Assembly: GCA_039208735.1 (NCBI GenBank)
Contig: JBCCQY010000148.1
Location: 1 to 23,415 of the forward strand
From: Myxococcota bacterium
GTDB lineage: Bacteria > Myxococcota_A > UBA796 > GCA-2862545
Direction of reading: 5' to 3'
DNA length: 23,415 nucleotides
Shown piece after piece: positions 3,528 through 23,301 of the stretch (the first letter of the stretch is position 1; each line of letters opens with the position of its first letter). The notes below the pieces were generated by a model. That model was not told where the DNA came from and did no database searches. It worked only from the letters and a program-made list of their open reading frames with translations. Made by a program: the position numbers and the translations under genes.

Positions 3528-3606
3528 GATGATCCTCCTTGGATGCATCAAAGCTAGGTTCGTGCCGGTCGCCAGAATGTGGCGAGTTGTGCCAGAGGGG
3601 GAAGTC

Positions 3607-5790: not shown

Positions 5791-5793
5791 CCG

Positions 5794-8124: not shown

Positions 8125-8781
8125 CTATTCTCGCGACCAGCTCTGCAGCGCCTCCTCGGCGGCATCGGGGACCAACAGCCCGAGCAGCATCATGCGGATG
8201 GACTGAGTCACGAAGCGTGCATCGAGGTCCTCGACTTCAAGCTCGACCCCGTAAGCGCGGATTTCTTCCCGGCGCTCCCAATACCCTTTGAACATTGCAT
8301 CCATGCTCAGCAGCGCGATGTCGACGTCGACGTCGGGGCGCAGACGGCCCGAGTCGTGGAAGTGCTGGAGCCGGGCCCGGACGTGCTGCGTGATCGCGAC
8401 GGCGGACGCCGACGGGGCGAGGGGGCGTCCCTCGAGCCGCGCCCAGGCGCCGAGTCGCATGAGGTCGCGGTGCTGACCCAGCCACTCGAACAACACGACC
8501 AGCCCGTGGGTGAAGAAGCGCAAATCGTCCATGGGCCGTGACCACTGCTCGATCTGCGCATCCTCATAATCCGACACTGCCGCCTCGAGAACGGCGTCAA
8601 ACAGCGCGTCCTTGGACCCGAAGTAGTGGTGGAGAAGCGGCTGGGTGACCCCCGCTCGACGTGCGATCTCACGGGTGGTCGTCGCGGCGAGACCGCGCTC
8701 TGCGAAGCAATCGCGAGCGGCGCGGAGGATGGTGTCGCGGGTGGCGAGGGCGCGAGGAGACAGAGTCCGGGTTTCGGTCAT
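8125..8781 (-). CDS. TetR/AcrR family transcriptional regulator
   Basis: TRDTILRAARDCFAERGLAATTTREIARRAGVTQPLLHHYFGSKDALF is a canonical TetR HTH. Start moved to ATG 8781 (MTETRT). Confidence 0.93.
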   Translation of the reverse strand: MTETRTLSPRALATRDTILRAARDCFAERGLAATTTREIARRAGVTQPLLHHYFGSKDALFDAVLEAAVSDYEDAQIEQWSRPMDDLRFFTHGLVVLFEWLGQHRDLMRLGAWARLEGRPLAPSASAVAITQHVRARLQHFHDSGRLRPDVDVDIALLSMDAMFKGYWERREEIRAYGVELEVEDLDARFVTQSIRMMLLGLLVPDAAEEALQSWSRE

Positions 8782-8889: not shown

Positions 8890-9711
8890 TCAGTCCTGAG
8901 CGGGAGGGATGCCCGGCAGCTCGACGCACCAGATCGCAGGGCTGTGCGCCCCAATGACCGGGATCAGGCGAAAGACAGGAAACACGAACCGGCTGAGACC
9001 GCGAGGGAACGACCAGGCGATCTCACGCACGCGGGCGCCGGGCACGACCGCGGCGATCCGCTTCGGAAGCTCGGTACGGCTCACGCCGAATGGCATGGGC
9101 GGAGCGATGTAGTTCGGCGTGAGGCGGAACCCCTGCTCGCTCGTGGTTCGGCGCGAGAACCACCCGGGGATGGTGTCGAAGGCGACCCAGCCACCGGGAA
9201 ACCGCTCGGCCAGATCCCGGAACAGCGGATCGATGGTCTCGTCGGGGAGGTACATGAGCAGCCCCTGTGCCGTCACGAAGGTCGGTCCCTTAGGGACCTC
9301 GTCCATCCAGGACCGGTCGAGGACCGAGCAGGCGAGATGGCGGCGTCGCGGCGCCTCTGGCACGAAGCGCTCGCGCGTGGCGATGGCGGGAGGGACGTCG
9401 ACGCTCAGCCAGTCCAGATCGAGGTCAGCGAGACGAAGCGCCTGTGTCTCGAGGCCCTCACCGAGGTTCACGACCGTCCCACCCGGAAAATGCTTTTCAA
9501 ACAAACGGATTTCGGCATCAAAGAGGGCCGAACGCACCCCGTGTGACGCGTTGGCGCGACCGAAGGAGGCCTCGTAGTCGTAGGTGATGGCGTCGTAGAT
9601 CCGAAGACAATCCGGATCGCGGAGCACCCCGTCCGATCGGCGGCACTCGCTCGCTCGATTGTGGAGCGTCCACAACATGGTCTCGGGTACGCCAGATAGA
9701 TTTGGTTCCAC
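8890..9711 (-). CDS. Class I SAM-dependent methyltransferase, leucine carboxyl methyltransferase (LCM)/TcmP-like O-methyltransferase family
   Basis: LSGVPETMLWTLHNRA, RSALFD, VVNLGEGLET (SAM motif I variant), WLSVDVP and TAQGLLMYL are hallmark motifs. Start moved to GTG 9711 with GAGGA 5 nt upstream; the longer track start reads through the operator. Confidence 0.9.
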   Translation of the reverse strand: MEPNLSGVPETMLWTLHNRASECRRSDGVLRDPDCLRIYDAITYDYEASFGRANASHGVRSALFDAEIRLFEKHFPGGTVVNLGEGLETQALRLADLDLDWLSVDVPPAIATRERFVPEAPRRRHLACSVLDRSWMDEVPKGPTFVTAQGLLMYLPDETIDPLFRDLAERFPGGWVAFDTIPGWFSRRTTSEQGFRLTPNYIAPPMPFGVSRTELPKRIAAVVPGARVREIAWSFPRGLSRFVFPVFRLIPVIGAHSPAIWCVELPGIPPAQD

Positions 9712-9746
9712 CTTGGTCCTCGCTTGCCGTACGTAGAGTCTCGAGC

Positions 9747-9767
9747 TGAAATTGAATTTCAATTTCA
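9747..9767. promoter_or_regulatory. Fur-family operator upstream of the methyltransferase
   Basis: TGAAATTGAA-T-TTCAATTTCA is a perfect 10-1-10 palindrome. It equals two 7-1-7 units offset by 6 bp, and lies 35 nt upstream of the start. Confidence 0.8.
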
Positions 9768-9847
9768 ATAACGCGGTTCGAACTGAGGTCACGCATTGGG
9801 CAGCCTCCGGCCAGTCGGGTTCGCCCGCCGACCGGGCCGAGTTCGAG

Positions 9848-10597
9848 CTACCTCAGCCGGGCCTTGATGCTCCCGACCAGGCGCCGACTCACCGGCAAAC
9901 GCTCCGTCGATCCAGTGAGCACCACGTGCCAACCGTCATCATCCATCGAGAGCAGCTCGAGGTGCCTTAGGTTCACCAAGGTCGAGCGGTGGATCCGCAC
10001 GAAGGGCGGATCGGGCAGAGCCGATTCCCAAGCCTGCAACGACTCCTTGATCACCTGGTTCCGTCCGCTTGCGAGCACCACCTCGGTGTAGTCCCGGGCC
10101 GACCGGAGTGCGACGATGTCGCCGACCCTTGCGAAGACGATGTCGCGTCCGCGTTGGAGGCAGATCCGGTCGCCGAGGCCGAGGGGACCCGATGGCGTGG
10201 TGCTTCGGCGCGGAAACAAGAGCGGCGCTGGGGCAACGGGCGATGCCCGCTCACGAATACGTCCGAGCGCCCGCTCGAGCTGCAGACGGTCGACAGGCTT
10301 CACGAGGTAGTCCACCGCGTCAATCTCGAAGGCCGTGAGCGCATGCTCGCTGTAGGCCGACACACAGATCACCCGGCAGTCGCTCGACACCGCCCGCACC
10401 GCATCGAAGCCCATGCCATCGCGCATGCGCACGTCGAGGAACACGACGTCCGGTGCGAGCGCCTCGATGGCCGCCACCGCAGACTGGACCGAGTCGGCCT
10501 CCCCCACAACGGTCACGTCATCGCGCTCGCCGAGGAGGGAACGCAGCGCTACCCGCGAGAGTGGTTCGTCGTCCACGACCAGCGCCCGGAGCGTCAC
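9848..10597 (-). CDS. LytTR (LytR/AlgR) family response regulator
   Basis: Receiver motifs VVDDE, FLDVRM (phospho-Asp), SAY and LVKP. LytTR domain FVRIHRSTLVN...LPVSRR. Start moved to GTG 10597, overlapping the kinase stop (GTGA). Confidence 0.93.
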   Translation of the reverse strand: MTLRALVVDDEPLSRVALRSLLGERDDVTVVGEADSVQSAVAAIEALAPDVVFLDVRMRDGMGFDAVRAVSSDCRVICVSAYSEHALTAFEIDAVDYLVKPVDRLQLERALGRIRERASPVAPAPLLFPRRSTTPSGPLGLGDRICLQRGRDIVFARVGDIVALRSARDYTEVVLASGRNQVIKESLQAWESALPDPPFVRIHRSTLVNLRHLELLSMDDDGWHVVLTGSTERLPVSRRLVGSIKARLR

Positions 10598-11679
10598 TTG
10601 GCTGCACTTGGGATCTCGTCGGGCAGCCGTTCGTCGGTGTCGTAGGTGATGCGTGCCACGACCCATTGGTCACGCTCGATGAGGGTGAACGTCCCGGTTC
10701 GGGGGTAGCGGGTGGCAAGTCGCTCGCGAACGAGCCGCAGGCCTGAACCGTTCGCAGGAGTCGGGGTCCGGACCAACGAACCCGTATTGGCGACCTCGAG
10801 CGTCAAACAGGACCCGACCTGCTCGGCACGCAGCTCGACGAGCAGGGCTCGCTGTCCAGTCATGCCGTGCTTGACTGCGTTCTCGACCAGCGGCTGGAGA
10901 AGCAGGCTCGGCACCGAAGCACTCGAGAGTCGCTCGTCAATGTCCACGCGGAGGTGCAGCTCGGCGCCGAACCGTACCTGTTCGCACTGCAGGTAGCGCA
11001 GGACGAAGTCCAATTCGAGGTCCAGAGTCGTGGTGGTCTGCTCGGCGGTCTCGAGAGCGGTGCGAAGGAGTCGGGACAGGTCGCGGAGCATATCCTTGGC
11101 TCGTCCCGGGTCGACCTCGACGAGGCCGATCACCGAGTTCAGGGAATTGAACAGGAAGTGTGGGTTGATCTGCGATCGCAGGGCCTGCAGTCGCGCCTCC
11201 TTCGACTGCGCCTGGCTCTCGAGCAGCCGTTCGCGAACCTGCTGCAGGTGACGGGTGGACCGAACAGCCTGGTGGATGTAGCTCCAGCCGAACAGCGAGA
11301 AGGTGAAGAAGGGCAGCATGATGTCATAGACGTTGTCGACGTACCCGGGGCTCTGCCAGGTGGTGCTCGCCCATGCGTGGCGCATTGCACTCGCACATGG
11401 GATGCCGAGCAACAGCGACGCGCCGAAGTACCCGCCCGCCACCCAAAAGCCAGCCCCGGGGCGAGTTATCCATCGGTTGGGGAGGGCTTGGTAGAGCCCT
11501 CCAAGGCCCGTCGACGCTGCGATCCCTAGGCCCACGCACAAGGCGAAGATGGCGATAGACTCGTCCAAAGGGGCCTGTTCGAGGTCGAGATCGCGCACGA
11601 TGCGCGGTCCGATGGCGGCCGCGGTCATCAGCGTCCAGCCAAGGATCTGGGTCGACCAGAACACTCTCGAACCGATCAT
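10594..11679 (-). CDS. LytS/YehU-type membrane sensor histidine kinase
   Basis: About four N-terminal TM helices, H-box LRSQINPHFLFNSLN, LLQPLVENAVKHG, and NGSGLRLVRERL. GGAG lies upstream of the ATG, 14 nt after the lipoprotein stop. Confidence 0.93.
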   Translation of the reverse strand: MIGSRVFWSTQILGWTLMTAAAIGPRIVRDLDLEQAPLDESIAIFALCVGLGIAASTGLGGLYQALPNRWITRPGAGFWVAGGYFGASLLLGIPCASAMRHAWASTTWQSPGYVDNVYDIMLPFFTFSLFGWSYIHQAVRSTRHLQQVRERLLESQAQSKEARLQALRSQINPHFLFNSLNSVIGLVEVDPGRAKDMLRDLSRLLRTALETAEQTTTTLDLELDFVLRYLQCEQVRFGAELHLRVDIDERLSSASVPSLLLQPLVENAVKHGMTGQRALLVELRAEQVGSCLTLEVANTGSLVRTPTPANGSGLRLVRERLATRYPRTGTFTLIERDQWVVARITYDTDERLPDEIPSAAK

Positions 11680-11693
11680 CGCGTGCTCCGGGT

Positions 11694-12980
11694 CTACAGC
11701 GGGCTGACGCCAATGATGATGCCAGGCGCCTCAAAGGTGTCCACCGGATTCTGCGGATCGTCGATGTTCACGAAGCGCGTGCTGCTGAAATCGGCGCCAA
11801 AGCGCGCGATGTAGAGACTGTCGAGGATCCGCAGCGTCGCGAGGGCACCCGAGGTCGTGCCAATCGCGTCGATGCGCGTCGCCGTGGTCGCCGTGGCCGG
11901 ATCGTCGACCTGGAAGGCCACCCAAGCATCGGCGTTCAGCATGTCCTGGTCCGTCGTCTCGTCGGTGATCGGGGCGATCGTCTCGTCGTAGCCCACCAGG
12001 AACACCGAGCCGTCGGGTCCGAGCGCGAGTTCGCCGGTTGCCGCAAGGCCCGTCCAGTCCGCAATGGCAGGCTCGTAGTCGTCGTCGAAGGTCGCCGTCT
12101 CGATGTCCATGCGGACCATGCACGGCGGAAAGGTTCCCTCGATGCCCAGCCGATGACGGGCTGCCGTGCGAGCGCCGTTGCTGACATAGACGTAGCCATC
12201 GTCACTGGCCACAACGCTGGTATTGCTGGCTCCCCCGCACCGATCGGTGGTCGTGTGGACGATGGCGTCGGTGGCGATCTCGATGGTCGTGAGCACGACA
12301 TTCGACGTCGCAAGCTGTGTCGCCTGATCGAAGTACCCGCCCGCTGCGATGACCCGGTCGCCGACCACCAGGGCTGGCGAAATGCCGAAGCTCTGGCCCT
12401 TGGGAGCGGCGATATCGTCGAGTGAGAGCGTCTCGATGATCGTCATCGAACTCGGGTTCCAAACTACGACCTGCAGCGCAACGTCGTCGATGTAGTAGCC
12501 CTTGGTGTCCGAAACCACGAGAAGCCGTCCTGGACGGGCAGAGATGGTCGTGACGCCCAGATTCTGGAAACTCACCGTCTTGCCAAGGGTGAAAGTGCCC
12601 TCTTCGTCGATGTCGTATCGGGTGACGGTGGGTGCCTCGCCGCTACCCGCCCACAGCGTGCGTCCGCGAGTTGCACAGGCCGGAAACGGGGGCAAGGTGA
12701 CCACCGACGCCAGGTCGACGGTCGTATCGAGGTCGAACGAGTCGATCACGGTCGCATAGCCACCGGGCCCTTCGTCGGTAAACAGCAGTCCGCACAGTGA
12801 GAACCCGTTGCTGCCATCAAGGGGAGGGGTTCCGGTCTCTTCGGCACCTGTCTCCTCCGGCATCGAGTCGGTAGACACCGCATCATCGGTCGTGCAGGCC
12901 GAGGTGATGCAGAATGCGACGGCACAGAAGATGGCGAAGACCTTCCGAAGGAACGGGCCAGGGGTCGTCGAAGGATGCAC
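11694..12980 (-). CDS. MxcI-like lipoprotein (putative beta-propeller partner of a siderophore receptor)
   Basis: Start moved to GTG 12980 (AGGAG 6 nt upstream). Lipobox ITSAC, then an acidic linker. Motifs PTVTRY..G..SF.NLG, SDTKGY, VWNPSSMTI, RC..DGYVY.S and PCMVR...FD resemble myxobacterial MxcI proteins as I recall them; no search was run. Confidence 0.7.
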   Translation of the reverse strand: MHPSTTPGPFLRKVFAIFCAVAFCITSACTTDDAVSTDSMPEETGAEETGTPPLDGSNGFSLCGLLFTDEGPGGYATVIDSFDLDTTVDLASVVTLPPFPACATRGRTLWAGSGEAPTVTRYDIDEEGTFTLGKTVSFQNLGVTTISARPGRLLVVSDTKGYYIDDVALQVVVWNPSSMTIIETLSLDDIAAPKGQSFGISPALVVGDRVIAAGGYFDQATQLATSNVVLTTIEIATDAIVHTTTDRCGGASNTSVVASDDGYVYVSNGARTAARHRLGIEGTFPPCMVRMDIETATFDDDYEPAIADWTGLAATGELALGPDGSVFLVGYDETIAPITDETTDQDMLNADAWVAFQVDDPATATTATRIDAIGTTSGALATLRILDSLYIARFGADFSSTRFVNIDDPQNPVDTFEAPGIIIGVSPL

Positions 12981-13066
12981 GGAGTTCTCCTGCCGCGTCG
13001 AAACGCGCTGGTTCGGGGAAAATGGACGAGCAACGGCGCGGGCCCGCGCGACGTGGGTGTCCTTAA

Positions 13067-13087
13067 TGACATTGAAATTCATGTTCA
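13067..13087. promoter_or_regulatory. Fur-family operator for the lipoprotein-kinase-regulator operon
   Basis: TGACATTGAAATTCATGTTCA: two degenerate 7-1-7 units offset by 6 bp, forming an AT-rich island. Confidence 0.7.
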
Positions 13088-13113
13088 AGTCGAGTATTAA
13101 AGCCGATCTTCGC

Positions 13114-13147
13114 TGTCGACGAACGGTCGCCTGGTGTCGACGAAAGG
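13114..13147 (-). promoter_or_regulatory. Putative LytTR binding site (direct repeat, 21-bp period)
   Basis: TGTCGACGAACGG (13114-13126) and TGTCGACGAAAGG (13135-13147) are 12/13 identical and exactly 21 bp apart. They lie upstream of the operon that encodes the LytTR regulator. Confidence 0.7.
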
Positions 13148-13224
13148 CACTGTGTGGAGTGTCAGGCGCGACGCTGACCGATGGATTTGACCTCCGCGCA
13201 CGAAGACGGTACGCGGTGCACTGA

Positions 13225-13239
13225 TGAAAACCGTTTGCA
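13225..13239. promoter_or_regulatory. Fur-family operator upstream of the PepSY-TM operon
   Basis: TGAAAAC-C-GTTTGCA has one mismatch from a perfect 7-1-7. It sits just downstream of a candidate promoter TTGACC(13187)-17 nt-TACGCG(13210). Confidence 0.72.
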
Positions 13240-13273
13240 ACTAGCACGCTGATGCGCCTGGGGTCGGATTCTC

Positions 13274-14842
13274 ATGCCGCTCTTTCCACGCAAGGATCGC
13301 CAGCACCGTGTCTCGTACGACGTCCACACCTGGGCTGGGGTCGTCATCGGGTTGCTGCTGTACGTGATGTTTTTTACCGGCGCGATCGCGCTGGTCACCG
13401 AGCCGCTCGGCACGTGGGAGGAGCCCGCGCATCACGAAGCGGCCACCGGCACGCCGGGCGAGTGGTGGGCTTCACTGCCCGCCGAAGGCGACGACGTCGA
13501 CCGGGTGTCGCTCACCTTGCCGGACCCAAGCCACGGCCACCAGGCCCCGACAGGGATGGTGTCCCGCGACGGCGACCGTACCTACCTCGTGTGGCGATCG
13601 GGAGCGTGGGCCGAGCGAAGCTCCCACGCCGCGAGTTTCCTCTTCCGGCTGCACTTCCTCTACCATCCTTCCGTGCCATGGATGATCAACGTGGCGGGCC
13701 TGATCTCGATGGCCATGCTGCTCGCGCTGCTCACGGGGCTCGTCATCCATCTCCGCGACCTGTGGACCGACCTCGACACCTTCCGTCCAAAGCTGCCCAT
13801 CCGGGCCGTCTGGACCGATCTTCACAAGGTCACCGCGGTCATCGGCCTGCCCTTTCAGCTGCTCTTCGCCTACACCGGGGCGGTGCTGTGCCTGTCGTCG
13901 TTTGTGATCGCAGCGGTGGCCCTGCCCCTGTACAACGGCGACGTGGATCGACTCCGCAGCCTGCTATTCGAGACCCCACCCCCCATCGCGGCCGAGGCCG
14001 AGCCCGCTCCGATGAAGCCACTGCCCGAGTTGCTCACCGCGGCGCAGATCGCCGCTCCGACGATGGAGCCGTCGTTCGTCAGCGTCTCGAACCCAGGTCT
14101 CGCGACCTCCGAGGTTCGCATCGGGGGCGTCGTCCAAGGCACCAACGAACGAGCCAACATCCTGCTCGAGGCCACGACCGGTGAGGTGCGGATGGTGCAG
14201 GGCCTCGAGCCCCCTAAGCCACACCAGGCGCTAATCAACTGGCTGTTCGCGCTGCACTTCGCTCAGTTCGGGGGTGGAATGGTGCTGGTGGCCTACGCCG
14301 TCCTCGCCCTCGCGACCTGCGCCACCATCCTGTCGGGCATCGCGATCTGGCTGGGCAAGCGGCGACGCGCCAGCGACTGGGGCACCTGGCTGCTCCGCGG
14401 GCTCACCACCGGAGTGGGGGCAGGGTTGCCCCTCGCGTGTGCGGGCATGCTGCTTGCGAGCCGCGTGCTCCCCTGGTCGCTGACCGGCCGGGCTGACTGG
14501 CTCGAGGGCCTCTTCGTCGGGCTGTTCGTCTCGGCGCTCGCGTGGGGACTGGCCGACCGCAACGAGTCCCGGGCTTGGGCAGGCATGATGGGCCTTACCG
14601 CCGTCAGCTGTTTCCTCGCCCCAGTGTTCCAGGCCACCCTCACCTCAGCAGGCTTGGGTGGCGCACAGCCGCAGGCCGAGGTGGTCGGGGTCGACATCGG
14701 ATTCCTGGTGTGCGGACTTCTCTTCGCGACGGGTGCATTCGGCGCAGCGAGACGGGCCCGACGCCTCTCGGAAGCCGTCGAATCCCCGGCCCTGGCCGCG
14801 CCGTCGCTCGAGATGCCGAGCAAGGCGGTGGCCCGTGGTTGA
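13274..14842 (+). CDS. PepSY-associated TM-helix iron-regulated membrane protein (PiuB/FoxB-like, possible ferric reductase)
   Basis: YDVHTWAG..GLLLYVMFFTG, FRLHFL, TDLHKVTAVIGLPF.L.FA.TG and ALHFAQFGG. These carry the four His positions typical of the family, with many TM helices. Confidence 0.92.
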   Translation: MPLFPRKDRQHRVSYDVHTWAGVVIGLLLYVMFFTGAIALVTEPLGTWEEPAHHEAATGTPGEWWASLPAEGDDVDRVSLTLPDPSHGHQAPTGMVSRDGDRTYLVWRSGAWAERSSHAASFLFRLHFLYHPSVPWMINVAGLISMAMLLALLTGLVIHLRDLWTDLDTFRPKLPIRAVWTDLHKVTAVIGLPFQLLFAYTGAVLCLSSFVIAAVALPLYNGDVDRLRSLLFETPPPIAAEAEPAPMKPLPELLTAAQIAAPTMEPSFVSVSNPGLATSEVRIGGVVQGTNERANILLEATTGEVRMVQGLEPPKPHQALINWLFALHFAQFGGGMVLVAYAVLALATCATILSGIAIWLGKRRRASDWGTWLLRGLTTGVGAGLPLACAGMLLASRVLPWSLTGRADWLEGLFVGLFVSALAWGLADRNESRAWAGMMGLTAVSCFLAPVFQATLTSAGLGGAQPQAEVVGVDIGFLVCGLLFATGAFGAARRARRLSEAVESPALAAPSLEMPSKAVARG

Positions 14843-15164
14843 AGCGATCGCCACCGCGGCCGCGCTGGGCTCGGCGGGCCTGCTGATCGCGGCGCGAGAC
14901 TCCGAATCATGGGTGCCGTCGGGCCTCGGCTATGCGGCGGCGGCACTGTCCTACGCCGGCAGCATGGGGGCGGCGCGGTTCAGTGGACTCGACGCCGACA
15001 CCTGGTGGCTGTTGCCACTCTCCGTCTTCACGGCGGGATTCACCACGATCGCACTGACGCGCCCGATCGGAGCGCGCGCTTGGTTCGACGGCGCCGCGGG
15101 CCTGGCCTCCGGTCTCGCACTGCTCGGCACGGTCGGCCTGATGGGAGGCCTTCTTGCCGCGTGA
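14835..15164 (+). CDS. Small membrane protein (109 aa), in the position DUF3325-like partners occupy in PepSY-TM operons
   Basis: GTG 14835 overlaps the PepSY-TM stop by 8 nt. MVEAIATAAALGSAGLL... has about four hydrophobic helices. The upstream part of the track ORF (from 14658) is non-protein-like. Confidence 0.7.
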   Translation: MVEAIATAAALGSAGLLIAARDSESWVPSGLGYAAAALSYAGSMGAARFSGLDADTWWLLPLSVFTAGFTTIALTRPIGARAWFDGAAGLASGLALLGTVGLMGGLLAA

Positions 15165-15444
15165 GTCGACCTGGAACGGCCGGTGGGACACCATCGGGCG
15201 CAACGTCGCAGCGATCGTGGGGACCCTGCCGCCGTCGGTGCTCGTGGTGTCACTGATCTGTCGAGTGCTCCCGCTTGAGGAGGCCATGGGGGTCGTCGTA
15301 GGCGGCCTGTCGCTGCCCTTCGTCTGGGCGACCGCGGTGTGGCTCCTCTACCTGGTGCCCACCGCACTCCGGGCCTGGGCCATCGTGCTCATCAGCTTCA
15401 TGGGGCTCGCATTCGCCACATGGTTCCTCGGTCCGATGCCCTGA
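15154..15444 (+). CDS. Small membrane protein, DUF3649-like iron-uptake accessory
   Basis: TTG start with GGAGG 5 nt upstream and three TM helices. The pattern R.VAA...LP..E.......VW..AV......ALRAW resembles DUF3649 as I recall it. Confidence 0.72.
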   Translation: MPRESTWNGRWDTIGRNVAAIVGTLPPSVLVVSLICRVLPLEEAMGVVVGGLSLPFVWATAVWLLYLVPTALRAWAIVLISFMGLAFATWFLGPMP

Positions 15445-15471
15445 TCTACCGGAGCCGTGGCACCCGCGAGA

Positions 15472-18400
15472 TCACAGCCTGCCGTTGTCGGTCGGAGTCC
15501 GCTCGTAGGAAAGCCAGGCGTCGAGAACCAGGCCGTCCCAGGCCCAGGGTTCGATGTGGCTTTCGGAGGGGGCCCAGCCACCGTCCGACCAGCTCCAGCG
15601 CTGGCCCTGGACGTCGCCCGACGTCAGGTTCAGGTCGGACATGCGGGGAGCGCCGAGACTCGCGGTGGGCAGACGGTCGGCGATGCGGCCCGTCGTGAGG
15701 CGATCGATGGTCTCGGTTAGCTCGACCGGAGACTGTCGGCCGACCCACGGAAGCGCCGCAAGCGGGGCGTACTCCCCAGCCCAGCTCCCGGGCGGTGCGT
15801 CACCCACCGACCCCACGGGCACCGCACTCGCGGCTAGCGACAGGGTCAAATCCTGCGACCACTGCGACAACAGATCGGTGGCCACCTCAGGACCGTCCAG
15901 ATCGCCTACCGCGAGCAGCGCGAGCGCCCGCGGGATGCCCTCGGTGAGCCAGGCCTCTCCTGACTCGTCGCGGAGGTCGGCGCGCTCCGCGAGCGTGGCG
16001 CGCACAATGGCCGCACCGATCTCGGCCCGCCGGTCGGAGCGCCCAGGCCCTTCGGGCCCCACGTCCCAGCCGTGATCCTCGGGCAACATCAGCACGCCGT
16101 CGGCCATGACCGGCTCGCCCCACACGCGGGGCACCTGCACCACGGTGGTGACCGGCGAGACTTCGGGCAGCCGGGCCCGGAGCGCGCGGGTCGTCTGCTC
16201 GATGTCCTCGGCGACCTCGCGAGCGGCATCCGTGAATCCAGGCCCGGCGAGAACGGTCAAGCCACTTGCCGGGTGGGAACGCAGCCGGGGGGCCCACCAA
16301 GCCACGAACTCCAAATGACCCTCCGTGCGGCCCTTGCGAAGCACATCCCCGTCGGGGGTCCGCATGGTCACCGTCCACGTCCAGTCCCCCGCCGGGGCCA
16401 CGCCGTAGGCGGCCGTGGTCGCGGTGGCTGACAGCTCGGGAACGCTCGGCGGCAGATCGTGGTTCCGCCGATACCGGGGTGACCGCAGGATGCGCCGAGG
16501 ATCAAGGCCCAGTCGGGGCACGGCATGCTCGGCCCGCATCCAAGTGCCCTGGGACAGCGACCAGTGGGGTTCACCGTGCGCCGACCAGCCCTCATCCATC
16601 ACCGTCCAGCGCAGGGTGACGTCATGTGGATCGGCATCGCCCAGCGGCACCGCTAGCGTGTCTTCGGCGAGGCGGGGCGACACCGTCGCGCCATCGACCG
16701 TCGCCTCTTGCAGGGCAAAGCCGTCCGGTACGTGCGCGAAGAGCTGTCCTCCCGCTGCCTGGGCGTCAGCGAGCGACCACGTGCCCTGGACGCGCCCTGG
16801 CTCGACCGTGAGCGCAAGCGAGCCCCCTGCGACCGACCACGGCGCCGCCTCGCTGGCCCAAGCCTTCTCCCAAGCGGCATCGTCGGCGAGTTCTTGCCCC
16901 GAAGAGGCGTAGCCCCCGCGCGTAACGTACTGCTGGTACTGGACGACGGCTGAGGCACCAGCCACGACTGTCGCGCCGACGAGGACCACACCCGCGGCCC
17001 CCCGAAGCCGCCGGACAGCGACCGGTCCACGGGTGGCGAAGTCGCTCTCGACACCACGAACGACAAAGAGGTACCCGATTCCCATCACGAGGACCGAGAC
17101 CGAGAGCTTGTAGAGGACCGACACGGACACGAGCCCGGCCCACGGGGCCCAGCCGGTCAGCGCCGAGACCTCGATCGCCGACGGGATCGCGAACTCGAAC
17201 GTCGGATAGGACACGAGGTCCAGTTCGTGGTTCACGACGAGCACGAACACCGTGGCGATCGACAGACCATAGGCAAGGCCTGGCGAGCGGAGTGCAGTGT
17301 GGCAGAGCACGACCACCGCTCCGATCTCGAGGAGCGCCGGTGCGAGCACGGTGAGCTGATAAATCCACGGCGAAGCCCAGGCGGCCTCCGACGAAGCGAA
17401 GGCCGCAATGAGCACCGTCGAAGCCATGGCCGGAAGCAGGGAAAAGCCGACGATGAGGATCGTGGCGGTGAGCACGCTCGCCACGAAGCGCACCCCGGGA
17501 GGGGCGGGGCAAGCGTCGAGCATCTCCGAGAAGCCGATGGCATCGTCGCGGCGAAACACCGCCCCCACCACGGCCAGAATCACGAAGGCCAAGACGATGT
17601 ATTGGAAGTTCGCCATTAGGGGCCCCACAATCTCGGCCCGGGGCAAGATCGGGCCACGGGCATGCCCCAGGATGTGAACGAACCCACCTGCCATCCCCAT
17701 CGCCAGGAGCAGCACCGCGGTGACCCAGAGTCCCGGCCCTCGCAGCGCCAGGCCGAGCTGCCAGCGGGCGTCCTCGAGTGTGGCGTGGACCCAGGAGGTT
17801 TGGTTCGGCGAGGGGGAGAACGAGCCAGGAGGGACGGTGACGGACTTCGCGAACTTCCGGTTACGCGGCGCCCGCTCCAGCACCAGGTGCTCCCGCCGGG
17901 TCGTCACGAGGACGAAGGGAAGCAGGCCGAGCGGCAAAAGCCCCCAGACCAACCGATTGACCACCAGAGCTGGGGTCCACTCGAGCCAGGCCGTCATGCG
18001 CTCAGCCGGCGTCCACGCCAACACCTGATACTCAACCTCGGCGTAGGCGCTGGGATCGATGATTCCGGCCGTGAGCGGATCGATGTCCCCACCCTTCACG
18101 ATCACCATCGCGGCCATCCACAGCAGCACCATTGCGGTAGCGACGGCAAACGGTCCCGCCGTGCTCCGGGTGCGGATCGCGGCCACGAGGAAGAGCGCCC
18201 CGTAGCCGAACGCCGAAGGGACCGCGAGGCAGAGCCAGGCCCAGCCGAGCGTGCCCCAAGGCGTGGGCATCACCGTCCCCGCGTCGTAGAGACCGACGGC
18301 CGCCATCGGCTCGATCACGAAGGCGGCCAGCGGGCTCGACGCGGCGATGACAAGCGCCGTAACGGAGGCGCCCAGGAAGCGGGCGCCGAGCAGACTGCTG

Positions 18401-18708
18401 ACGGGAACGGGGGTCGCCAGCACCATCTCGTGCATTTGTGCGGTGCGGTCCCGTACTACGGGCTGCGCATAGACCCACGCCCACGCGATGAACAGCCAGA
18501 ACGTGTTGCCTGCGACCATCAGGTAGAGCACAAACGGCGAATTGCGCGCGACATCCACCGCACCGAGCTCACGCAGGTAGCCCGCGTGCGACAGCACGAG
18601 CACCATGTAGCCAGCCAGCAACGCGAACATCACCCACGTGAAGGGGCTCGTCAGCCCGGAGCGGGCTTCGTGGTAGGCCTCGGCCAATAGCGTGCGCAGG
18701 CGACTCAC
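15472..18708 (-). CDS. ABC-2-type permease (two membrane halves) fused to a degenerate M1-aminopeptidase-like domain (1078 aa)
   Basis: Start moved to GTG 18708 (GTGA overlap with the ATPase stop). Two permease halves (VVRDRTAQMHEMVLATP; FRRDDAIGFSEMLDACP), NRLVW and YE/WEK.W-like motifs. The soluble C-domain has WLTEG and a terminal ERTPTDN but no HEXXH. Confidence 0.85.
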   Translation of the reverse strand: MSRLRTLLAEAYHEARSGLTSPFTWVMFALLAGYMVLVLSHAGYLRELGAVDVARNSPFVLYLMVAGNTFWLFIAWAWVYAQPVVRDRTAQMHEMVLATPVPVSSLLGARFLGASVTALVIAASSPLAAFVIEPMAAVGLYDAGTVMPTPWGTLGWAWLCLAVPSAFGYGALFLVAAIRTRSTAGPFAVATAMVLLWMAAMVIVKGGDIDPLTAGIIDPSAYAEVEYQVLAWTPAERMTAWLEWTPALVVNRLVWGLLPLGLLPFVLVTTRREHLVLERAPRNRKFAKSVTVPPGSFSPSPNQTSWVHATLEDARWQLGLALRGPGLWVTAVLLLAMGMAGGFVHILGHARGPILPRAEIVGPLMANFQYIVLAFVILAVVGAVFRRDDAIGFSEMLDACPAPPGVRFVASVLTATILIVGFSLLPAMASTVLIAAFASSEAAWASPWIYQLTVLAPALLEIGAVVVLCHTALRSPGLAYGLSIATVFVLVVNHELDLVSYPTFEFAIPSAIEVSALTGWAPWAGLVSVSVLYKLSVSVLVMGIGYLFVVRGVESDFATRGPVAVRRLRGAAGVVLVGATVVAGASAVVQYQQYVTRGGYASSGQELADDAAWEKAWASEAAPWSVAGGSLALTVEPGRVQGTWSLADAQAAGGQLFAHVPDGFALQEATVDGATVSPRLAEDTLAVPLGDADPHDVTLRWTVMDEGWSAHGEPHWSLSQGTWMRAEHAVPRLGLDPRRILRSPRYRRNHDLPPSVPELSATATTAAYGVAPAGDWTWTVTMRTPDGDVLRKGRTEGHLEFVAWWAPRLRSHPASGLTVLAGPGFTDAAREVAEDIEQTTRALRARLPEVSPVTTVVQVPRVWGEPVMADGVLMLPEDHGWDVGPEGPGRSDRRAEIGAAIVRATLAERADLRDESGEAWLTEGIPRALALLAVGDLDGPEVATDLLSQWSQDLTLSLAASAVPVGSVGDAPPGSWAGEYAPLAALPWVGRQSPVELTETIDRLTTGRIADRLPTASLGAPRMSDLNLTSGDVQGQRWSWSDGGWAPSESHIEPWAWDGLVLDAWLSYERTPTDNGRL

Positions 18709-19583
18709 GCGGCCTCCCGCGGTGCATCGGCGAGGGCGACATGGTAGGCGTCCTCGAGTCGCGGAGGGTGAGGCTGGAAGGCGTCGGTCGGCGCCGTCGC
18801 ACTCCGGACGACCACAAGGGTGCCTTCGGGTCGCGCAGAGACGTGGATGGCTTCGGGAAGCGACTCGCCCCGAGGCACCACCCGTGACCACAACTGTCCC
18901 GCCAGCGGGGCCTCGAGTTCGTCGGGCGTGCCCTCCGCGACGATGCGTCCCTGGTCGAGGATCGCGAGGCGGCGGCACAGGTGCTCGACGTCTTCGACGA
19001 TGTGAGTGGACAGCAGCACCACGGCGTCCGTCGCGACCTCGGCGAGCACGCGATGGAACCGGTTGCGCTCGGCCGGGTCGAGCCCCGCGGTCGGCTCGTC
19101 GACGATGATCAGCCGCGGGGCCGCGAGCAGTGCGACGGCGATGCCAAAGCGCCGGCGCATTCCCCCCGAATAGGTCGCAACGGCCTGGTTGCCCGCGGCC
19201 GACAGGTTCACGCGGTCCAGCAGCGTCCCGACTTCACGGTCCCGCTCCGCCCGGTCCGTGCGCCCTTTGAGCCAGGCAAAGCGATCGAGGAGCTGACGCC
19301 CCGACACCGATGGATAGCTGCCGATGCTCTGGGGCAGGTAGCCAAGGTTGCGTCGCAGGTGGTCGGGGTCGGCCAGGCCATCGACGCCGTCGAGATGCAC
19401 CGATCCGCCGTCAGGGCGCTGCAGCGTCGCCAGCGTGCGCATCAATGTCGACTTACCGGCCCCATTCGGGCCAAGGAGCCCGTACATACCGGACTCGACA
19501 GTGAAGGAGACACCATCGAGGGCGCGAATGCCGTTGGAATACGTCTTCGAGAGGTTTTGCACGACGAGGCCAGGTTGGGACAC
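18705..19583 (-). CDS. ABC transporter ATP-binding protein (ABC-2/drug-exporter type)
   Basis: Walker A GPNGAGKST, Q-loop YLPQ, signature YSGGMRRR, Walker B IIVDEPT and H-loop LSTH. GTG start with GGAGGGAG upstream. Confidence 0.96.
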   Translation of the reverse strand: MSQPGLVVQNLSKTYSNGIRALDGVSFTVESGMYGLLGPNGAGKSTLMRTLATLQRPDGGSVHLDGVDGLADPDHLRRNLGYLPQSIGSYPSVSGRQLLDRFAWLKGRTDRAERDREVGTLLDRVNLSAAGNQAVATYSGGMRRRFGIAVALLAAPRLIIVDEPTAGLDPAERNRFHRVLAEVATDAVVLLSTHIVEDVEHLCRRLAILDQGRIVAEGTPDELEAPLAGQLWSRVVPRGESLPEAIHVSARPEGTLVVVRSATAPTDAFQPHPPRLEDAYHVALADAPREAA

Positions 19584-19601
19584 GCTCCCTCCATTGCTAA
19601 A

Positions 19602-19616
19602 TGAAAACGGTTTTCA
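19602..19616. promoter_or_regulatory. Fur-family operator upstream of the ABC operon
   Basis: TGAAAAC-G-GTTTTCA is a perfect 7-1-7 palindrome 18 nt upstream of the ATPase start. Confidence 0.8.
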
Positions 19617-19672
19617 CTTCTTCAGGCGTTTATCGACTGAACAACGCATCGCAACCGTCGCTCGGTCACCTT

Positions 19673-19694
19673 TGAAACCGAATTTCATTTTTCA
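19673..19694. promoter_or_regulatory. Second Fur-family-like operator upstream of the ABC operon
   Basis: TGAAACC-G-AATTTCA followed by TTTTTCA, forming an AT-rich island. Confidence 0.62.
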
Positions 19695-19916
19695 ATAGGA
19701 GATACGCAGGAAACGGTCACCCAAGCCCGCTCCCGTCTCCTCAACCGTGTCGCCACTGGACGCTCTGGCGTTCCACCGTGAGCCCGAGCTTCTCGATGGA
19801 GCGTCACAGCGCGTAGAGGTCCGTCGGGCGTAGCGACCGTGGCGAGGTCTCCCTTCTCGGCGACCTACGTGAGGAGAGAGTTGATGGCGCACGTACGCAA
19901 CCTGCGTTCCTCGGCG

Positions 19917-20444
19917 TCAGGGCGTGTCGCGGAGCTCGAGCGACGCGGCACTGCCTCCGACGACGTAGGAAGCCGCGCCTTCCACACCGTCAATCGAGAC
20001 ATCCCCCCATGGGACCTCGTCGAAGGGTACGATCTCGTAGGTCACGGTGACGGGCTCCTCTTCGGTGCCGTCGTCGAAGCTCGGAAGCGTCACGGCGACC
20101 ACGGGCTCCGCCATGGCGAGCGTGAAGCCCGAAAACGTAAGGTCGCCCACGGGCTCCGGGTGCGCGTCCGGGCTGACCGACAGCGAGAACAGATCCGTCT
20201 GGGTCAGCGACTGTGGCACGTCACCGAGGACGTACACCGTCACGCCCCCCTCGGGCACGTCGCCGTCCAGCGAAAGCGTGAACGTGGTCGACGAAGCCGG
20301 GGCTTCCGTCAGGGTCGGCGGCGCGATGGTCAAGCTGACCACGGGCTCGGCGTCGACACCGGTCTCACCCGTCTCGCCGGTGGGGTCGGAGGATGTCTCG
20401 GCGCAGGCAGGAAGCAGTACCACAAGGGCAGTCAATCGGAGCAA
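19917..20444 (-). CDS. Small acidic lipoprotein with a single Ig/Calx-beta-like domain
   Basis: TTG start with GAGG upstream, lipobox LPAC and a TGETGETG linker. The beta-rich domain VVSLT...TFTLSLDG.VP.GGVTV...TLP.FDDG.EE...VTY resembles Calx-beta-like modules. Confidence 0.75.
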   Translation of the reverse strand: MLRLTALVVLLPACAETSSDPTGETGETGVDAEPVVSLTIAPPTLTEAPASSTTFTLSLDGDVPEGGVTVYVLGDVPQSLTQTDLFSLSVSPDAHPEPVGDLTFSGFTLAMAEPVVAVTLPSFDDGTEEEPVTVTYEIVPFDEVPWGDVSIDGVEGAASYVVGGSAASLELRDTP

Positions 20445-20462
20445 TGGAGCCTCGCTGACCGA

Positions 20463-20483
20463 TGATAATGAATGTCGTTTTCA
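20463..20483. promoter_or_regulatory. Fur-family operator upstream of the small lipoprotein
   Basis: TGATAATGAATGTCGTTTTCA. The inner 19-mer matches the classical GATAATGATAATCATTATC at 14/19. Confidence 0.75.
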
Positions 20484-20542
20484 GTAGCAATTGAGAGAGG
20501 GGATCCGTTGACGCGTGCATCCACGAGGTTAGCCGTCCGAGC

Positions 20543-20565
20543 ATGAAAATGAATATCGTTTTCAT
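20543..20565. promoter_or_regulatory. Fur-family operator overlapping the receptor start codon
   Basis: ATGAAAATGA-ATA-TCGTTTTCAT is an inverted repeat with one mismatch. It matches the classical Fur 19-mer at 14/19. Confidence 0.75.
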
Positions 20566-22993
20566 CTGGCTTCTGGGAGCTGGGCCCGCTTGGGCACAGC
20601 CGGAAGCTCCGATGCCGGTTGAGCCGACGCCCTCCGACCCCGCGCCAGTCCCGGTCGAGCCTGTGCCGGAACCTGCCGAGCCCGAGCCGCCCCCGCCCGC
20701 TGCGCCGGCGGAGGGGTCGGTCACCGTGTCGCTGGCCGACCTACCCAACGACATCGCGGTTCGCATGCGCCTCATCCGTGCTGATGGCACCGCGCTGCCG
20801 CTCGTTCGTTCCGCTACCGGGGCGTTCGTGCAGCAGAAGGTGCCGATCGGATCCTGGATGATCGAGGTTGCCGATGACGAGACGGTGCTCTTGGAGCAAG
20901 TTGTCGAGGTGATTGCGGGCCAGACCACCCAAGTCCCTCTCTCGATGACGACCGACGACGACGTCACCGAGATTGTGGTGGTTGGCCTGACCGAGGCGAG
21001 CGAGATGCGCCGTTCGGCCGAGGCCGTGACCGTGGTCGAGACCGAGGAGGCCCAGCGGCAGTCCGCCGATCTCGGCGAGGTCATGGCCCGAACCCAGGGC
21101 GTCGGTGTACGTCGCGGCGGTGGGCTCGGCTCAGGTACGCGGTTCTCCCTCAACGGACTCACCGACGACCAAGTCCGGTTCTTCATCGACGGTGTTCCGC
21201 TCTCGCTTGCCGGCTACCCTCTGGGCCTTGCCAACGTGCCCGTCGACCTCGTACGGCGGGTCGAAGTGTTCAGGGGCGTGGTGCCCGTCCGATTTGGAGC
21301 GGACGCACTGGGTGGGGCGGTCAACCTCGTAAGCGAGTCCGAGCAGACGCGCACCGGCGGAAGCTTCTCGTACCAGGGGGGGTCGTTCGACACCCACCGG
21401 TTCGCCGCCAATGGACGCGGCAAGGCCGGGGGGCTGCGCCTCGCCGGGTCGGCCTACTTCGACACCTCTCGCAACGACTACGTCATCGACGTCGAAGTTC
21501 CCGACGAGCTCGGCCGGCTCTCGCCCACCGAGGTGCGTAGGTTCCACGATGGCTACCAGGCGGGTGGCGGCTCGGTCGAGGTGGGCGTCGCCGATGGCTC
21601 CTGGGCCGATGGCCTCACCCTGCGAGCGTTTGGGGCGGGATTCCGGAGGGAGTTTCAGCACAACGTTGTGATGACGATTCCCTACGGCGCGCCGGTGGGG
21701 ACGGTGATCACGGGCGGCACGATGTTGCGCTACCACCACAACCTCTCCGAGTCCGTTCGCATCGATGCGTTCGTGACCCCCACGCGGACCCGCCGCACCT
21801 TCACCGACACCGGCGACTGCATCGTCGACTGGTTCGGTCAGTGCGTGCGTGATCTCGACCCGGTGGGGGAGCTGTCGGTCGGCGGCATCGACGCCCGGGT
21901 CTTCGACAACAACCTCGTGGGGCGGCTCCGGCTCACCTGGCAGCCAAGCGACGGCCACACCTTCGAACTCGCGGTATCCCCGCAGACGTTCTCCCGGTCC
22001 GGCGAGAACCTGCTGTTGGACAACGAGGATGTACGTGACCCGCTGTCCGCCCGTCGGGACGCGAGCCAGCTGGTGAGTGGCCTTGAGCACATCGCGCGCA
22101 CCCGCGACGAACGGCTCGAGAACCGCGTGTTCGTCAAGCATTACGGCCAGTGGCTGCGTAGCGAGGAGCCGCTGCCGGGCGGGACCCTTCGCGACGTGAA
22201 TCGCAACACACAGCGGTTCGGGGCCGGCAACGGTACGCGGCTGCTGCTCGGTCAGTCCGCGTGGCTTAAGGCCTCCTACGAGTTCGCGACTCGGCTGCCG
22301 ACCCCCGACGAGGTCTTCGGTGACGCCGTGCTCGTGGTGGACAACCTCGAGCTACAGCCCGAGCAGAGCCACAACGTGAACCTGGGGCTGACCCTCGAGC
22401 CCCCGCCTGGCGCGACGGGGCGATGGACGCTCGACACCCAGCTGTTTGGTCGGTTCGCGAACGATCTCATCGTGCTGCTCGGCAACAGCCAGACATTTTC
22501 GTACTTCAACGTGTTCGGCGCACGCTCGGCAGGCCTCGAAGGTTCGGGGTCTTGGACGTCGCCTGGCGACGTCGTTCGCCTGTCGGCCAATGCGACGTGG
22601 CTCGAGTTCCGCAACACAAGCGACGAGGGCACGTTTGGCGACTTCGCGGGCGACCGCATCCCGAACCGGCCGTGGCTGTTCGCCAATGCATCGGCCCAAA
22701 TTGGTTCTTCGAACGTGGTGAGTGACGAGGATCGGCTCACGCTCGACTGGTACACGCGCTACGTTCACCCCTTCTTCCGGGGCTGGGAGAGCGTGGGACT
22801 CGTGCAGTTCAAGCAGGAGATCCCGGCTCAGCTCTCCCATGCGGTGGCCGTCACCTACGCCGTGCAGACCCCGCAGCGCCAGGTCAGCGTCTCGGCCGAG
22901 GTGCAGAACCTCACGGACGAAGCGTTGTTCGACTTCTTTGGAGTCCAGCGCCCTGGCCGATCGGTGTTCGGCAAGATTACCGTCGGTTTGTGA
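20543..22993 (+). CDS. mxcH: TonB-dependent siderophore receptor, MxcH (myxochelin receptor)-like
   Basis: Signal peptide (AWA-Q), Pro-rich linker, small N-terminal beta domain and TonB-box-like EIVVVG. Plug SAEAVTVVETE..SADLGEVMARTQGVGVRRGGGLGSGTRFSLNGL..RFFIDGVP..VEVFRGVVPVRFGADALGGAVNLV. Barrel ends NLTDEALFDFFGVQRPGRSVFGK. The TonB-receptor call is secure; MxcH orthology rests on recalled similarity. Confidence 0.9.
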   Translation: MKMNIVFIWLLGAGPAWAQPEAPMPVEPTPSDPAPVPVEPVPEPAEPEPPPPAAPAEGSVTVSLADLPNDIAVRMRLIRADGTALPLVRSATGAFVQQKVPIGSWMIEVADDETVLLEQVVEVIAGQTTQVPLSMTTDDDVTEIVVVGLTEASEMRRSAEAVTVVETEEAQRQSADLGEVMARTQGVGVRRGGGLGSGTRFSLNGLTDDQVRFFIDGVPLSLAGYPLGLANVPVDLVRRVEVFRGVVPVRFGADALGGAVNLVSESEQTRTGGSFSYQGGSFDTHRFAANGRGKAGGLRLAGSAYFDTSRNDYVIDVEVPDELGRLSPTEVRRFHDGYQAGGGSVEVGVADGSWADGLTLRAFGAGFRREFQHNVVMTIPYGAPVGTVITGGTMLRYHHNLSESVRIDAFVTPTRTRRTFTDTGDCIVDWFGQCVRDLDPVGELSVGGIDARVFDNNLVGRLRLTWQPSDGHTFELAVSPQTFSRSGENLLLDNEDVRDPLSARRDASQLVSGLEHIARTRDERLENRVFVKHYGQWLRSEEPLPGGTLRDVNRNTQRFGAGNGTRLLLGQSAWLKASYEFATRLPTPDEVFGDAVLVVDNLELQPEQSHNVNLGLTLEPPPGATGRWTLDTQLFGRFANDLIVLLGNSQTFSYFNVFGARSAGLEGSGSWTSPGDVVRLSANATWLEFRNTSDEGTFGDFAGDRIPNRPWLFANASAQIGSSNVVSDEDRLTLDWYTRYVHPFFRGWESVGLVQFKQEIPAQLSHAVAVTYAVQTPQRQVSVSAEVQNLTDEALFDFFGVQRPGRSVFGKITVGL

Positions 22994-23060
22994 TCAGACT
23001 CGCGCAAGCTTTGCTTGCTGCTGTTCTGATTTCGCGCAAGCTCCGCTTGCCGCTGATCAG
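22991..23060. repeat. Two tandem ~32-bp units, each with a GCAAGC-N3-GCTTGC mini-hairpin (REP-like)
   Basis: TCGCGCAAGCTTTGCTTGCTGCTG (23000-23023) and TCGCGCAAGCTCCGCTTGCCGCTG (23032-23055) are 21/24 identical. TGATCAG flanks the pair at 22991 and 23054. Confidence 0.6.
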
Positions 23061-23301
23061 CGTGCAAGAGCGAAGCGACGAAAGCTGACCGCGTGAACCT
23101 GCAGGCGCGTTGCGCCGGAGGCTGGCGGTGATCATTAGGAGAAGCTGCGTACTTCGTCGATTGGTCATAGCCTGGCGGTGGGATGGATCCCCTCGTCGTG
23201 GGATCTACCAGGGCATAGGGGCGACAAACTCGTTTTCCGGCTTCGGACGGGTGCCGATCTCAAAGACCCGCACGAAGCTTGCGCTATAGACGGTCCCGTA
23301 C

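Follow-up and report, generated by a model that had tools for sequence, protein, structure and literature searches.

Lid-assisted siderophore piracy has been published as a trait of the Bacteroidetes, its type being the three-gene XusABC operon of Bacteroides: a TonB-dependent receptor, a propeller lipoprotein whose short hookless form binds ferrichrome (PMC13142918), and a PepSY-TM partner, with the lipoprotein family DUF4374 called exclusive to Bacteroidetes in the XusB preprint (bioRxiv 2023.06.25.546471; this and all other literature is cited from the accessible parts of the sources). Three further systems come close in other respects: Caulobacter hiuABC, which is under Fur control and encodes a xenosiderophore receptor together with a PepSY reductase and a small membrane partner (PMC12424826); srbLMNOP of the sorangibactin cluster, which include a receptor, a ~400-amino-acid (aa) protein, a ~295-aa ATPase and a ~1130-aa permease and are only annotated in the sorangibactin paper (PMC10127202); and Staphylococcus aureus Spm, a TcmP-like, Fur-repressed methyltransferase encoded behind fhuD1, which inactivates pyochelin by methylating its carboxylate (PMC10592502). 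Here we analyze a locus, most likely myxobacterial going by its homologues, that resembles each of these, positions 8890-22993 of a 23,415-nucleotide stretch (hereafter “the window”), which is the complete contig C148 (JBCCQY010000148.1) of the Myxococcota assembly GCA_039208735.1 (G000; 9.4 Mb, 64% guanine plus cytosine). Taken as a whole, the locus is best explained as a siderophore-piracy island with a disposal arm, a reading that we consider moderately probable.

The original prediction for this DNA described 11 genes in six units, each preceded by the same operator, and gene calls (codon-model gene caller plus family scans) together with an independently trained box matrix confirmed this arrangement of intact genes. 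From left to right the units comprise a methyltransferase (-), a lipoprotein-LytS-LytTR operon (-), a PepSY-TM gene with two small membrane genes (+), an ATP-binding cassette (ABC) ATPase with an ABC-2/pseudo-M1 transporter (-), a small lipoprotein (-) and the receptor (+); two starts had to be corrected from longer open reading frame starts, that of the methyltransferase (near 9711) and that of the lipoprotein (12980). The TGAAA-N5-TTTCA motif occurs 12 times in the window at ≤2 mismatches against 2.5 expected, a number reached in none of 100 shuffles. The matrix, trained solely on 33 perfect sites from other contigs, returned 11 window sites at ≥12 bits, all within 9483-20548 and none left of 9483, with at least one before each unit and one (9483) inside the methyltransferase gene. 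Two sites lie at 9745..9769 (29.0 and 28.3 bits), three between the divergent lipoprotein and PepSY units (13065/13071 and 13223, span 13065..13241; 16.6, 25.3 and 17.1 bits), two before the ATPase (19600..19689; 25.6 and 24.4 bits) and three between the small lipoprotein and the receptor (20467 and 20542/20548, span 20461..20566; 20.7, 17.6 and 23.6 bits). A general promoter/terminator scan did no better than chance.

This operator had been thought private to the island, but it turned out to be a genome-wide Fur box, with 36 perfect cores in G000. The Fur box predicted for delta-proteobacteria is palindromic and 17 bp long, WTGAAAATNATTTTCAW, in many cases present as two copies offset by 6 bp, and is placed before feoAB (PMC545781); the G000 consensus, ATTGAAAATCATTTTCAAT, matches it, 6-bp-shifted doubles included, the window sites differ by 2-4 mismatches, and the pair at 9745..9769 has the published layout. 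Strong sites precede 65 of the 7672 called genes of G000, among them feoA-feoB, a haem ABC operon beside HemS, and genes for HmuY, imelysin, a siderophore-interacting protein and a HugZ-like protein, which places the island in a general iron regulon. Judged from this match the window operator is a Fur box, and the island, so marked, is likely iron-repressed (four Fur-family genes are present in G000).

The uptake core of the island resembles Bacteroides Xus in sequence and fold. The receptor (20543..22993, (+), 816 aa) is of the MxcH/XusA family (NF038079, 934.9 bits; cut-off 925), and its best match in the Protein Data Bank (PDB) is 9gbc_A (E 2.7e-76 over residues 99-814), from an entry whose chain B is a DUF4374 protein and which is presumably XusAB itself. 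The lipoprotein (11694..12980, (-), 428 aa, lipobox ITSA-C) is XusB/DUF4374-like and of the short hookless, SrbN-like type: its model is a beta-propeller (pLDDT 88.9) with B. fragilis XusB as top fold match (TM-score 0.67/0.70) and BtuG propellers next, and a profile from 23 of the 28 G000 paralogues matches B. fragilis XusB over its full length (E 4.5e-16), with the Pfam DUF4374 score alone staying below cut-off (16.1 of 25). The acidic patch that follows the lipoprotein cysteine is more pronounced here than among the remaining predicted lipoproteins (2.07 vs. 1.09; 15 of 28 parsed), a weak hint at surface exposure. The PepSY-TM protein (13274..14842, (+), 522 aa, PF03929 E 2e-47), of the FoxB/XusC/HiuB family, is a predicted ferric-siderophore reductase in which H18, H127, H184 and H328, invariant in 11 of 11 aligned sequences, are presumably haem ligands. 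Single-sequence PDB searches with the methyltransferase, lipoprotein and PepSY proteins gave nothing useful, and profiles were required. On sequence and model evidence, then, true homology links the window receptor to Bacteroides XusA and the window lipoprotein to hookless XusB; the parallel with xusABC first drawn from reading the genes alone is borne out, and a role of the island in siderophore uptake is well supported.

Family scans of the window recovered no non-ribosomal peptide synthetase (NRPS) or dihydroxybenzoate (DHB) genes and no FecCD, i.e., FhuBCD-type, importer, in agreement with the original prediction, and its proposal of an uptake-only island is supported by G000 as a whole (92.7% complete), where we found no condensation domain, IucA/C, DHB-AMP ligase or other standard enzyme of NRPS, NRPS-independent siderophore (NIS) or DHB/salicylate synthesis; the only two chorismate enzymes are TrpE- and PabB-like. 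An adjoining biosynthetic cluster was also looked for: near the right end of C148, 106 unique bases also occur in contig C91, which runs on into purA, infB and nusA-like genes, so that no such cluster adjoins if this join is right. Elsewhere in G000 (C29:57922-60103, L017:2923-5104), a Fur-boxed nicotianamine-synthase-like gene stands with genes for a 404-aa protein and an AraC regulator, adjoined by a boxed YbtP/Q-like pair and a TcmP gene.

The link from an MxcH-type receptor to myxochelin did not survive. Receptors from salicylate-NRPS clusters (1196 and 1062 bits) and from a hydroxamate NIS cluster (952 bits) score above the NF038079 threshold as well, and DHB-AMP ligase was found in 0 of the 20 genomes carrying these modules; a phylum-wide search gave 0 of 301, a weak result as four candidates were scored per genome. 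In the receptor tree the window protein groups with three receptors of its own family and not with producer clusters, so that the ligand class is not readable from the tree. No NCBIfam match was available for an MxcI comparison, no mxc cluster was retrieved (again four candidates scored per genome), and a literature search on the MxcH receptor and MxcI in myxochelin returned no relevant match. An MxcH-type receptor does not imply myxochelin, and the island is not a myxochelin cluster.

Together, these observations fit a sequence of three events. Under iron shortage, Fur would release the six units; the propeller lipoprotein would bind a ferric siderophore and hand it over to the TonB receptor, with 28 divergent lipoproteins widening the range of chelators served by six barrels; and the PepSY-TM protein with its two small partners would, going by the family, reduce Fe(III) in the periplasm, from where the boxed FeoAB could import Fe(II). 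The motif, the homology and the fold are observed, and we regard these three steps jointly as highly probable.

What would happen to the chelator is suggested by two further units. The methyltransferase (8890..9711, (-), 273 aa, PF04072 E 2.5e-9) is a Spm-like, S-adenosylmethionine-dependent member of the TcmP/LCM family, probably of carboxyl type, as its family profile matches the carboxyl methyltransferases PPM1/LCMT1 and ML2640. Strong boxes precede 4 of the 6 TcmP paralogues in G000, vs. 65 of 7672 genes, and a fifth closes a boxed YbtP/Q-like operon. The chelator-modifying role first proposed for it draws support by analogy from Spm, which was also the sole relevant case in a literature search on TcmP methyltransferases and siderophores. 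The transporter (15472..18708, (-), 1078 aa, about 12-13 transmembrane segments), of SrbP type, consists of two ABC-2 halves fused to an M1-fold domain (model pLDDT 89.6; M1 fold Z 22, ABC-2 membrane domain Z 16-18), and is preceded by its DrrA-like, SrbO-type ATPase (18705..19583, (-), 292 aa), in which Walker A, signature and Walker B are intact. “Pseudo-peptidase” proved an apt label, the M1 zinc site HExxH-(18)-E being missing, with AEIGA at the aligned position. Among 118 full-length relatives the motif is lost in 106 and kept in 12, so that the loss extends beyond the window clade (72 sequences, support 0.976), in which HExxH is absent in 72 of 72 and replaced by W-D...R-R. A paralogous ABC-2/M1 aminopeptidase fusion on C84 has the same architecture, and further fusions outside the window clade (P0076-P0160) also lack HExxH and bear other motifs. 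The clade is rare, found in 1 of 400 phylum genomes (a lower bound from a stricter first look), with members in Acidobacteriota and Alloalcanivorax as well; on plasmids only distant relatives were found, and a literature search on fused ABC transporter/M1 aminopeptidase permeases returned no relevant match.

Twenty transporter loci outside the window, not all independent (four are from Sorangium, three from Vicinamibacterales), tie the clade to iron: 15 have a receptor, lipoprotein, PepSY gene, siderophore cluster or Fur box, and 7 adjoin biosynthesis (six salicylate-NRPS, one NIS). TcmP lies in the transporter operon in 5 of the 20, and in 0 of the 7 biosynthesis-adjoining loci within the fetched flanks; a divergent TetR gene flanks the transporter in 6. 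In L033 (16454-21988), a DesABCD-like hydroxamate NIS cluster stands directly behind a lipoprotein-PepSY-lipoprotein-ATPase-transporter-receptor series, and L028, L029 and L030, from Vicinamibacterales without NRPS or NIS, hold two or three tandem pseudo-M1 transporters with TonB receptors and TcmP. An apparent receptor-transporter fusion in L029 was discarded, its junction being off-frame.

It is tempting to speculate, by analogy with Spm, that methyltransferase and transporter disarm and expel a stolen chelator: chelator entering the cytoplasm through importers encoded elsewhere would be methylated on a carboxylate, as pyochelin is by Spm, and then exported by the ATPase and SrbP-type transporter, whose dead peptidase domain might bind cargo on the periplasmic side. 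This methylate-and-export step is more doubtful than the uptake steps, and we offer it tentatively. Export is favored because TetR and resistance-nodulation-division (RND) genes recur beside the transporter, because boxed YbtP/Q-like and AmpG/RhtX-like carriers (the latter under cut-offs) exist elsewhere in G000, and because a YbtP/Q-like pair stands beside the transporter in the So0157-2 cluster. The last two of these points also count against the likeliest alternative, in which the piracy core is unchanged and the SrbP-type machine transports inward, its dead M1 domain serving as a built-in binding protein for import or for NosDFY-style stripping (PMC8457098), and methylation freeing iron in the cytoplasm. 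Such a machine would account for the absence of any other inner-membrane transporter from both the window and the sorangibactin cluster table, for the multiple copies of this one in genomes without NRPS or NIS (five in G000, two to three per locus in L028-L030), and for the same-strand lipoprotein gene that directly precedes the ATPase gene in 8 of the 20 outside loci. The best single match of the membrane domain is NosY (Z 17.9), yet most of its structural neighbors are exporters, including a fused mycobacterial efflux pump (8k1m, Z 16.1 over 464 residues), and to our knowledge no bacterial ABC-2-fold importer of small chelators is established. Modelling the Sorangium lipoprotein and the pseudo-M1 domain as a complex gave a score of 0.00, which speaks neither for nor against an interaction. 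Overall we consider inward transport unlikely.

The piracy island with outward disposal would be completed by its own sensor, a LytS-type histidine kinase (10594..11679, (-), 361 aa, PF06580 E 6e-24, with a hydrophobic N-terminal part by hydropathy) and a LytTR response regulator (9848..10597, (-), 249 aa, PF00072 and PF04397). Four of the seven LytS/LytTR pairs of G000 adjoin a lipoprotein (C148, C267, C21 and C17), vs. 1.1% of genes within two positions of one, and in G204, a genome of another family, one of two LytS pairs faces a PepSY gene, with an RND pump and two lipoproteins encoded after the pair. A candidate pair in L040 was rejected as OmpR-type. The pair may sense the chelator present and adjust expression to it, the most speculative step of the scheme.

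The lipoproteins themselves are expanded. G000 encodes 28 of them (median identity 26%, strong box at 15 of 28) along with 6 receptors, 6 TcmP-like methyltransferases, 5 pseudo-M1 transporters, 7 LytS kinases and at least 7 PepSY-TM proteins; one stretch of C6 (86.7-103.8 kb, L009) alone holds seven lipoproteins, four PepSY-TM and two TetR-like genes and five boxes, and the part read includes no receptor. G204 (5.1 Mb, 97% complete, no NRPS or NIS) has 37 lipoproteins vs. one MxcH-type receptor, split over two contigs, and one transporter with a methyltransferase in its operon; G000 and G204 lipoproteins are intermixed on the tree. In a sample of 300 other phylum genomes, a strong lipoprotein match was obtained in 11 (a lower bound, as six lipoprotein candidates were scored per genome) and an MxcH-type receptor in 11, both in the same 10. 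Lipoprotein loci were read in 10 genomes besides G204; all 10 had a receptor in the locus, and 8 had PepSY. One of four congeners (G201) has the lipoprotein, with three matches. Some non-producing marine myxobacteria may practice a combinatorial piracy, in which dozens of divergent XusB-like lids lend many siderophore specificities to few barrels (28:6 here, 37:1 in G204) and a hitherto undescribed ABC-2 transporter with a dead aminopeptidase head, a Spm-like methyltransferase and a lipoprotein-linked LytS/LytTR pair handle the chelator, although in this full form we consider the idea speculative and rather unlikely.

A conserved 11-gene system is not supported. Synteny elsewhere was only half found: the complete order is absent from every locus read, and only sub-modules recur, namely receptor-lipoprotein-PepSY plus the small genes, the ATPase-transporter pair accompanied by a methyltransferase or TetR gene, and lipoprotein-LytS-LytTR. 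The island is therefore a mosaic of recurring modules under one regulon. One could go further and see in it separately acquired Fur-controlled cassettes gathered at one spot and acting on different molecules, i.e., one regulon and not one pathway, in keeping with the separate boxing of the six units, paralogues in other orders on C267, C21, C80, C52, C217, C1 and C17, the scatter of lipoprotein and transporter paralogues over their trees, the absence of the system in three of four congeners and a transposase inside the C52 locus. However, unrelated genomes bring the same families together again (Myxococcota and Acidobacteriota pair TcmP with the transporter; G204 combines LytS, PepSY, RND and lipoproteins), and we judge such a patchwork improbable. 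Misbinning was rejected as the origin of the paralogues: C148 is typical by 4-mer distance (17 of 83 peers as far), with C6, C8, C21 and C217 mildly atypical, and median identity among the paralogues is only 26%. Least likely, and in our view very improbable, is that the receptor-lipoprotein pairs import amino acids, cobalamin or another metal chelate, as the lysine/tyrosine phenotypes of a distant Echinicola XusAB pair (bioRxiv 2023.03.17.533168), the BtuG fold matches and the many unboxed G204 copies might suggest; against this stand the Fur box that precedes each of the window units, the predicted PepSY-TM reductase and the orthologues inside siderophore biosynthetic clusters.

Several observations weigh against siderophore piracy with disposal. 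None of 60 close relatives has the transporter, 5 of the 20 outside loci carry no iron marker (two are short contigs), and the full gene order recurs nowhere examined. The TcmP family is broad (2533 matches), with a siderophore receptor nearby in just 1 of 6 plasmid contexts, and reduction in the periplasm would leave cytoplasmic methylation partly redundant. A strong box precedes just 6 of the 37 G204 lipoproteins, vs. 10 of 203 neighboring genes, so that iron control of every copy does not follow, and many copies may serve other ligands. G000, incomplete as stated, also has 6.15% contamination, and the boxed nicotianamine-synthase-like gene on C29 may mean that the organism makes a non-standard (opine-type) metallophore of its own.

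The remaining genes of the island are small. Small membrane protein 1 (14835..15164, (+), 109 aa, no Pfam match) has a homologue in the same position in G201; small membrane protein 2 (15154..15444, (+), 96 aa) has a 53% identical paralogue on C267 and may be DUF3649-like (Atlas 0.88, TM-score 0.81 to DUF3649 clusters; a lead only); and the small lipoprotein (19917..20444, (-), 175 aa) may have a Calx-beta-like fold (likewise a lead, Atlas <0.9), with a homologue inside the receptor-lipoprotein-PepSY operon of G201. A TetR regulator gene (8125..8781, (-), PF00440), directly 3' of the methyltransferase and outside the span originally proposed, is possibly part of the island. Further left, genes for an S41 peptidase (+), a small barrel-like protein (-) and a metallophosphoesterase-like one that may carry a Tat signal (-) occupy 3589-8021 without Fur boxes, and a 690-aa protein (221-2293, (-)) joins a MopE metal-binding motif, lamin-tail and esterase-like domains, a TSP3 repeat and hexapeptide repeats. 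Just past the receptor lies a palindromic REP-like repeat (22990-23140), whose first 76 bases match 28 times in the genome. C58 overlaps the left end of C148; at the right, 23183-23288 is identical to the first 106 bases of C91, which then diverges and has more Fur boxes at 552-700, and the final 127 bases of C148 are possibly an assembly tip. Window DNA is present in marine metagenome runs, and contigs from three DNA runs confirmed the sequence (X1) and did not extend C148.

Within the literature reached (most subscription papers and bioRxiv supplements were beyond the search), we found no description of the disposal arm, the sensor or the lid expansion, and none of the listed matches on TonB-dependent xenosiderophore uptake mentions Myxococcota. 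If correct, these results extend lid-assisted piracy to Myxococcota; make it testable, in two distant genomes where lids far outnumber receptors, how many chelators a barrel serves and whether lids are swapped or shed; provide SrbN, SrbO and SrbP with a family and fold; delineate a rare ABC clade with a pseudo-peptidase domain and ties to siderophore loci; and suggest that bacteria other than Staphylococcus also methylate foreign siderophores in the manner of Spm.

Compared with Bacteroides XusABC, which likewise has a homologous receptor, a short propeller lipoprotein, a PepSY-TM partner and no standard siderophore of its own, the window system belongs to another phylum, despite the published restriction of DUF4374, and its trio lies in three separately boxed units (a single operon in G201, G181 and G195); its genome adds the 28:6 lipoprotein:receptor ratio, the methyltransferase, the ABC-2/pseudo-M1 transporter and LytS/LytTR. 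As far as family membership of the three core proteins tells, the window system nonetheless works like Bacteroides Xus. The hiuABC operon lacks a lipoprotein lid, methyltransferase or ABC-2 pump in the accessible account (PMC12424826). The likeness to Spm is at family level and lies in a Fur-boxed TcmP-like gene that neighbors genes for siderophore uptake in an organism not itself making the chelator (PMC10592502), whereas G000 has six paralogues tied to a dedicated transporter. Known ABC-2/M1 aminopeptidase fusions share the architecture, from which the window clade differs by loss of HExxH throughout and by its W-D...R-R. Finally, the homologous Sorangium genes (permease 38%, receptor about 50% identical to those of the window) are, by sizes, order and the So0157-2 locus, probably SrbM, N, O and P (PMC10127202, as far as accessible), and the window likewise pairs an ATPase with a ~1100-aa permease that falls in one clade with the Sorangium cluster protein, but unlike the srb cluster, G000 has neither salicylate synthase nor NRPS.

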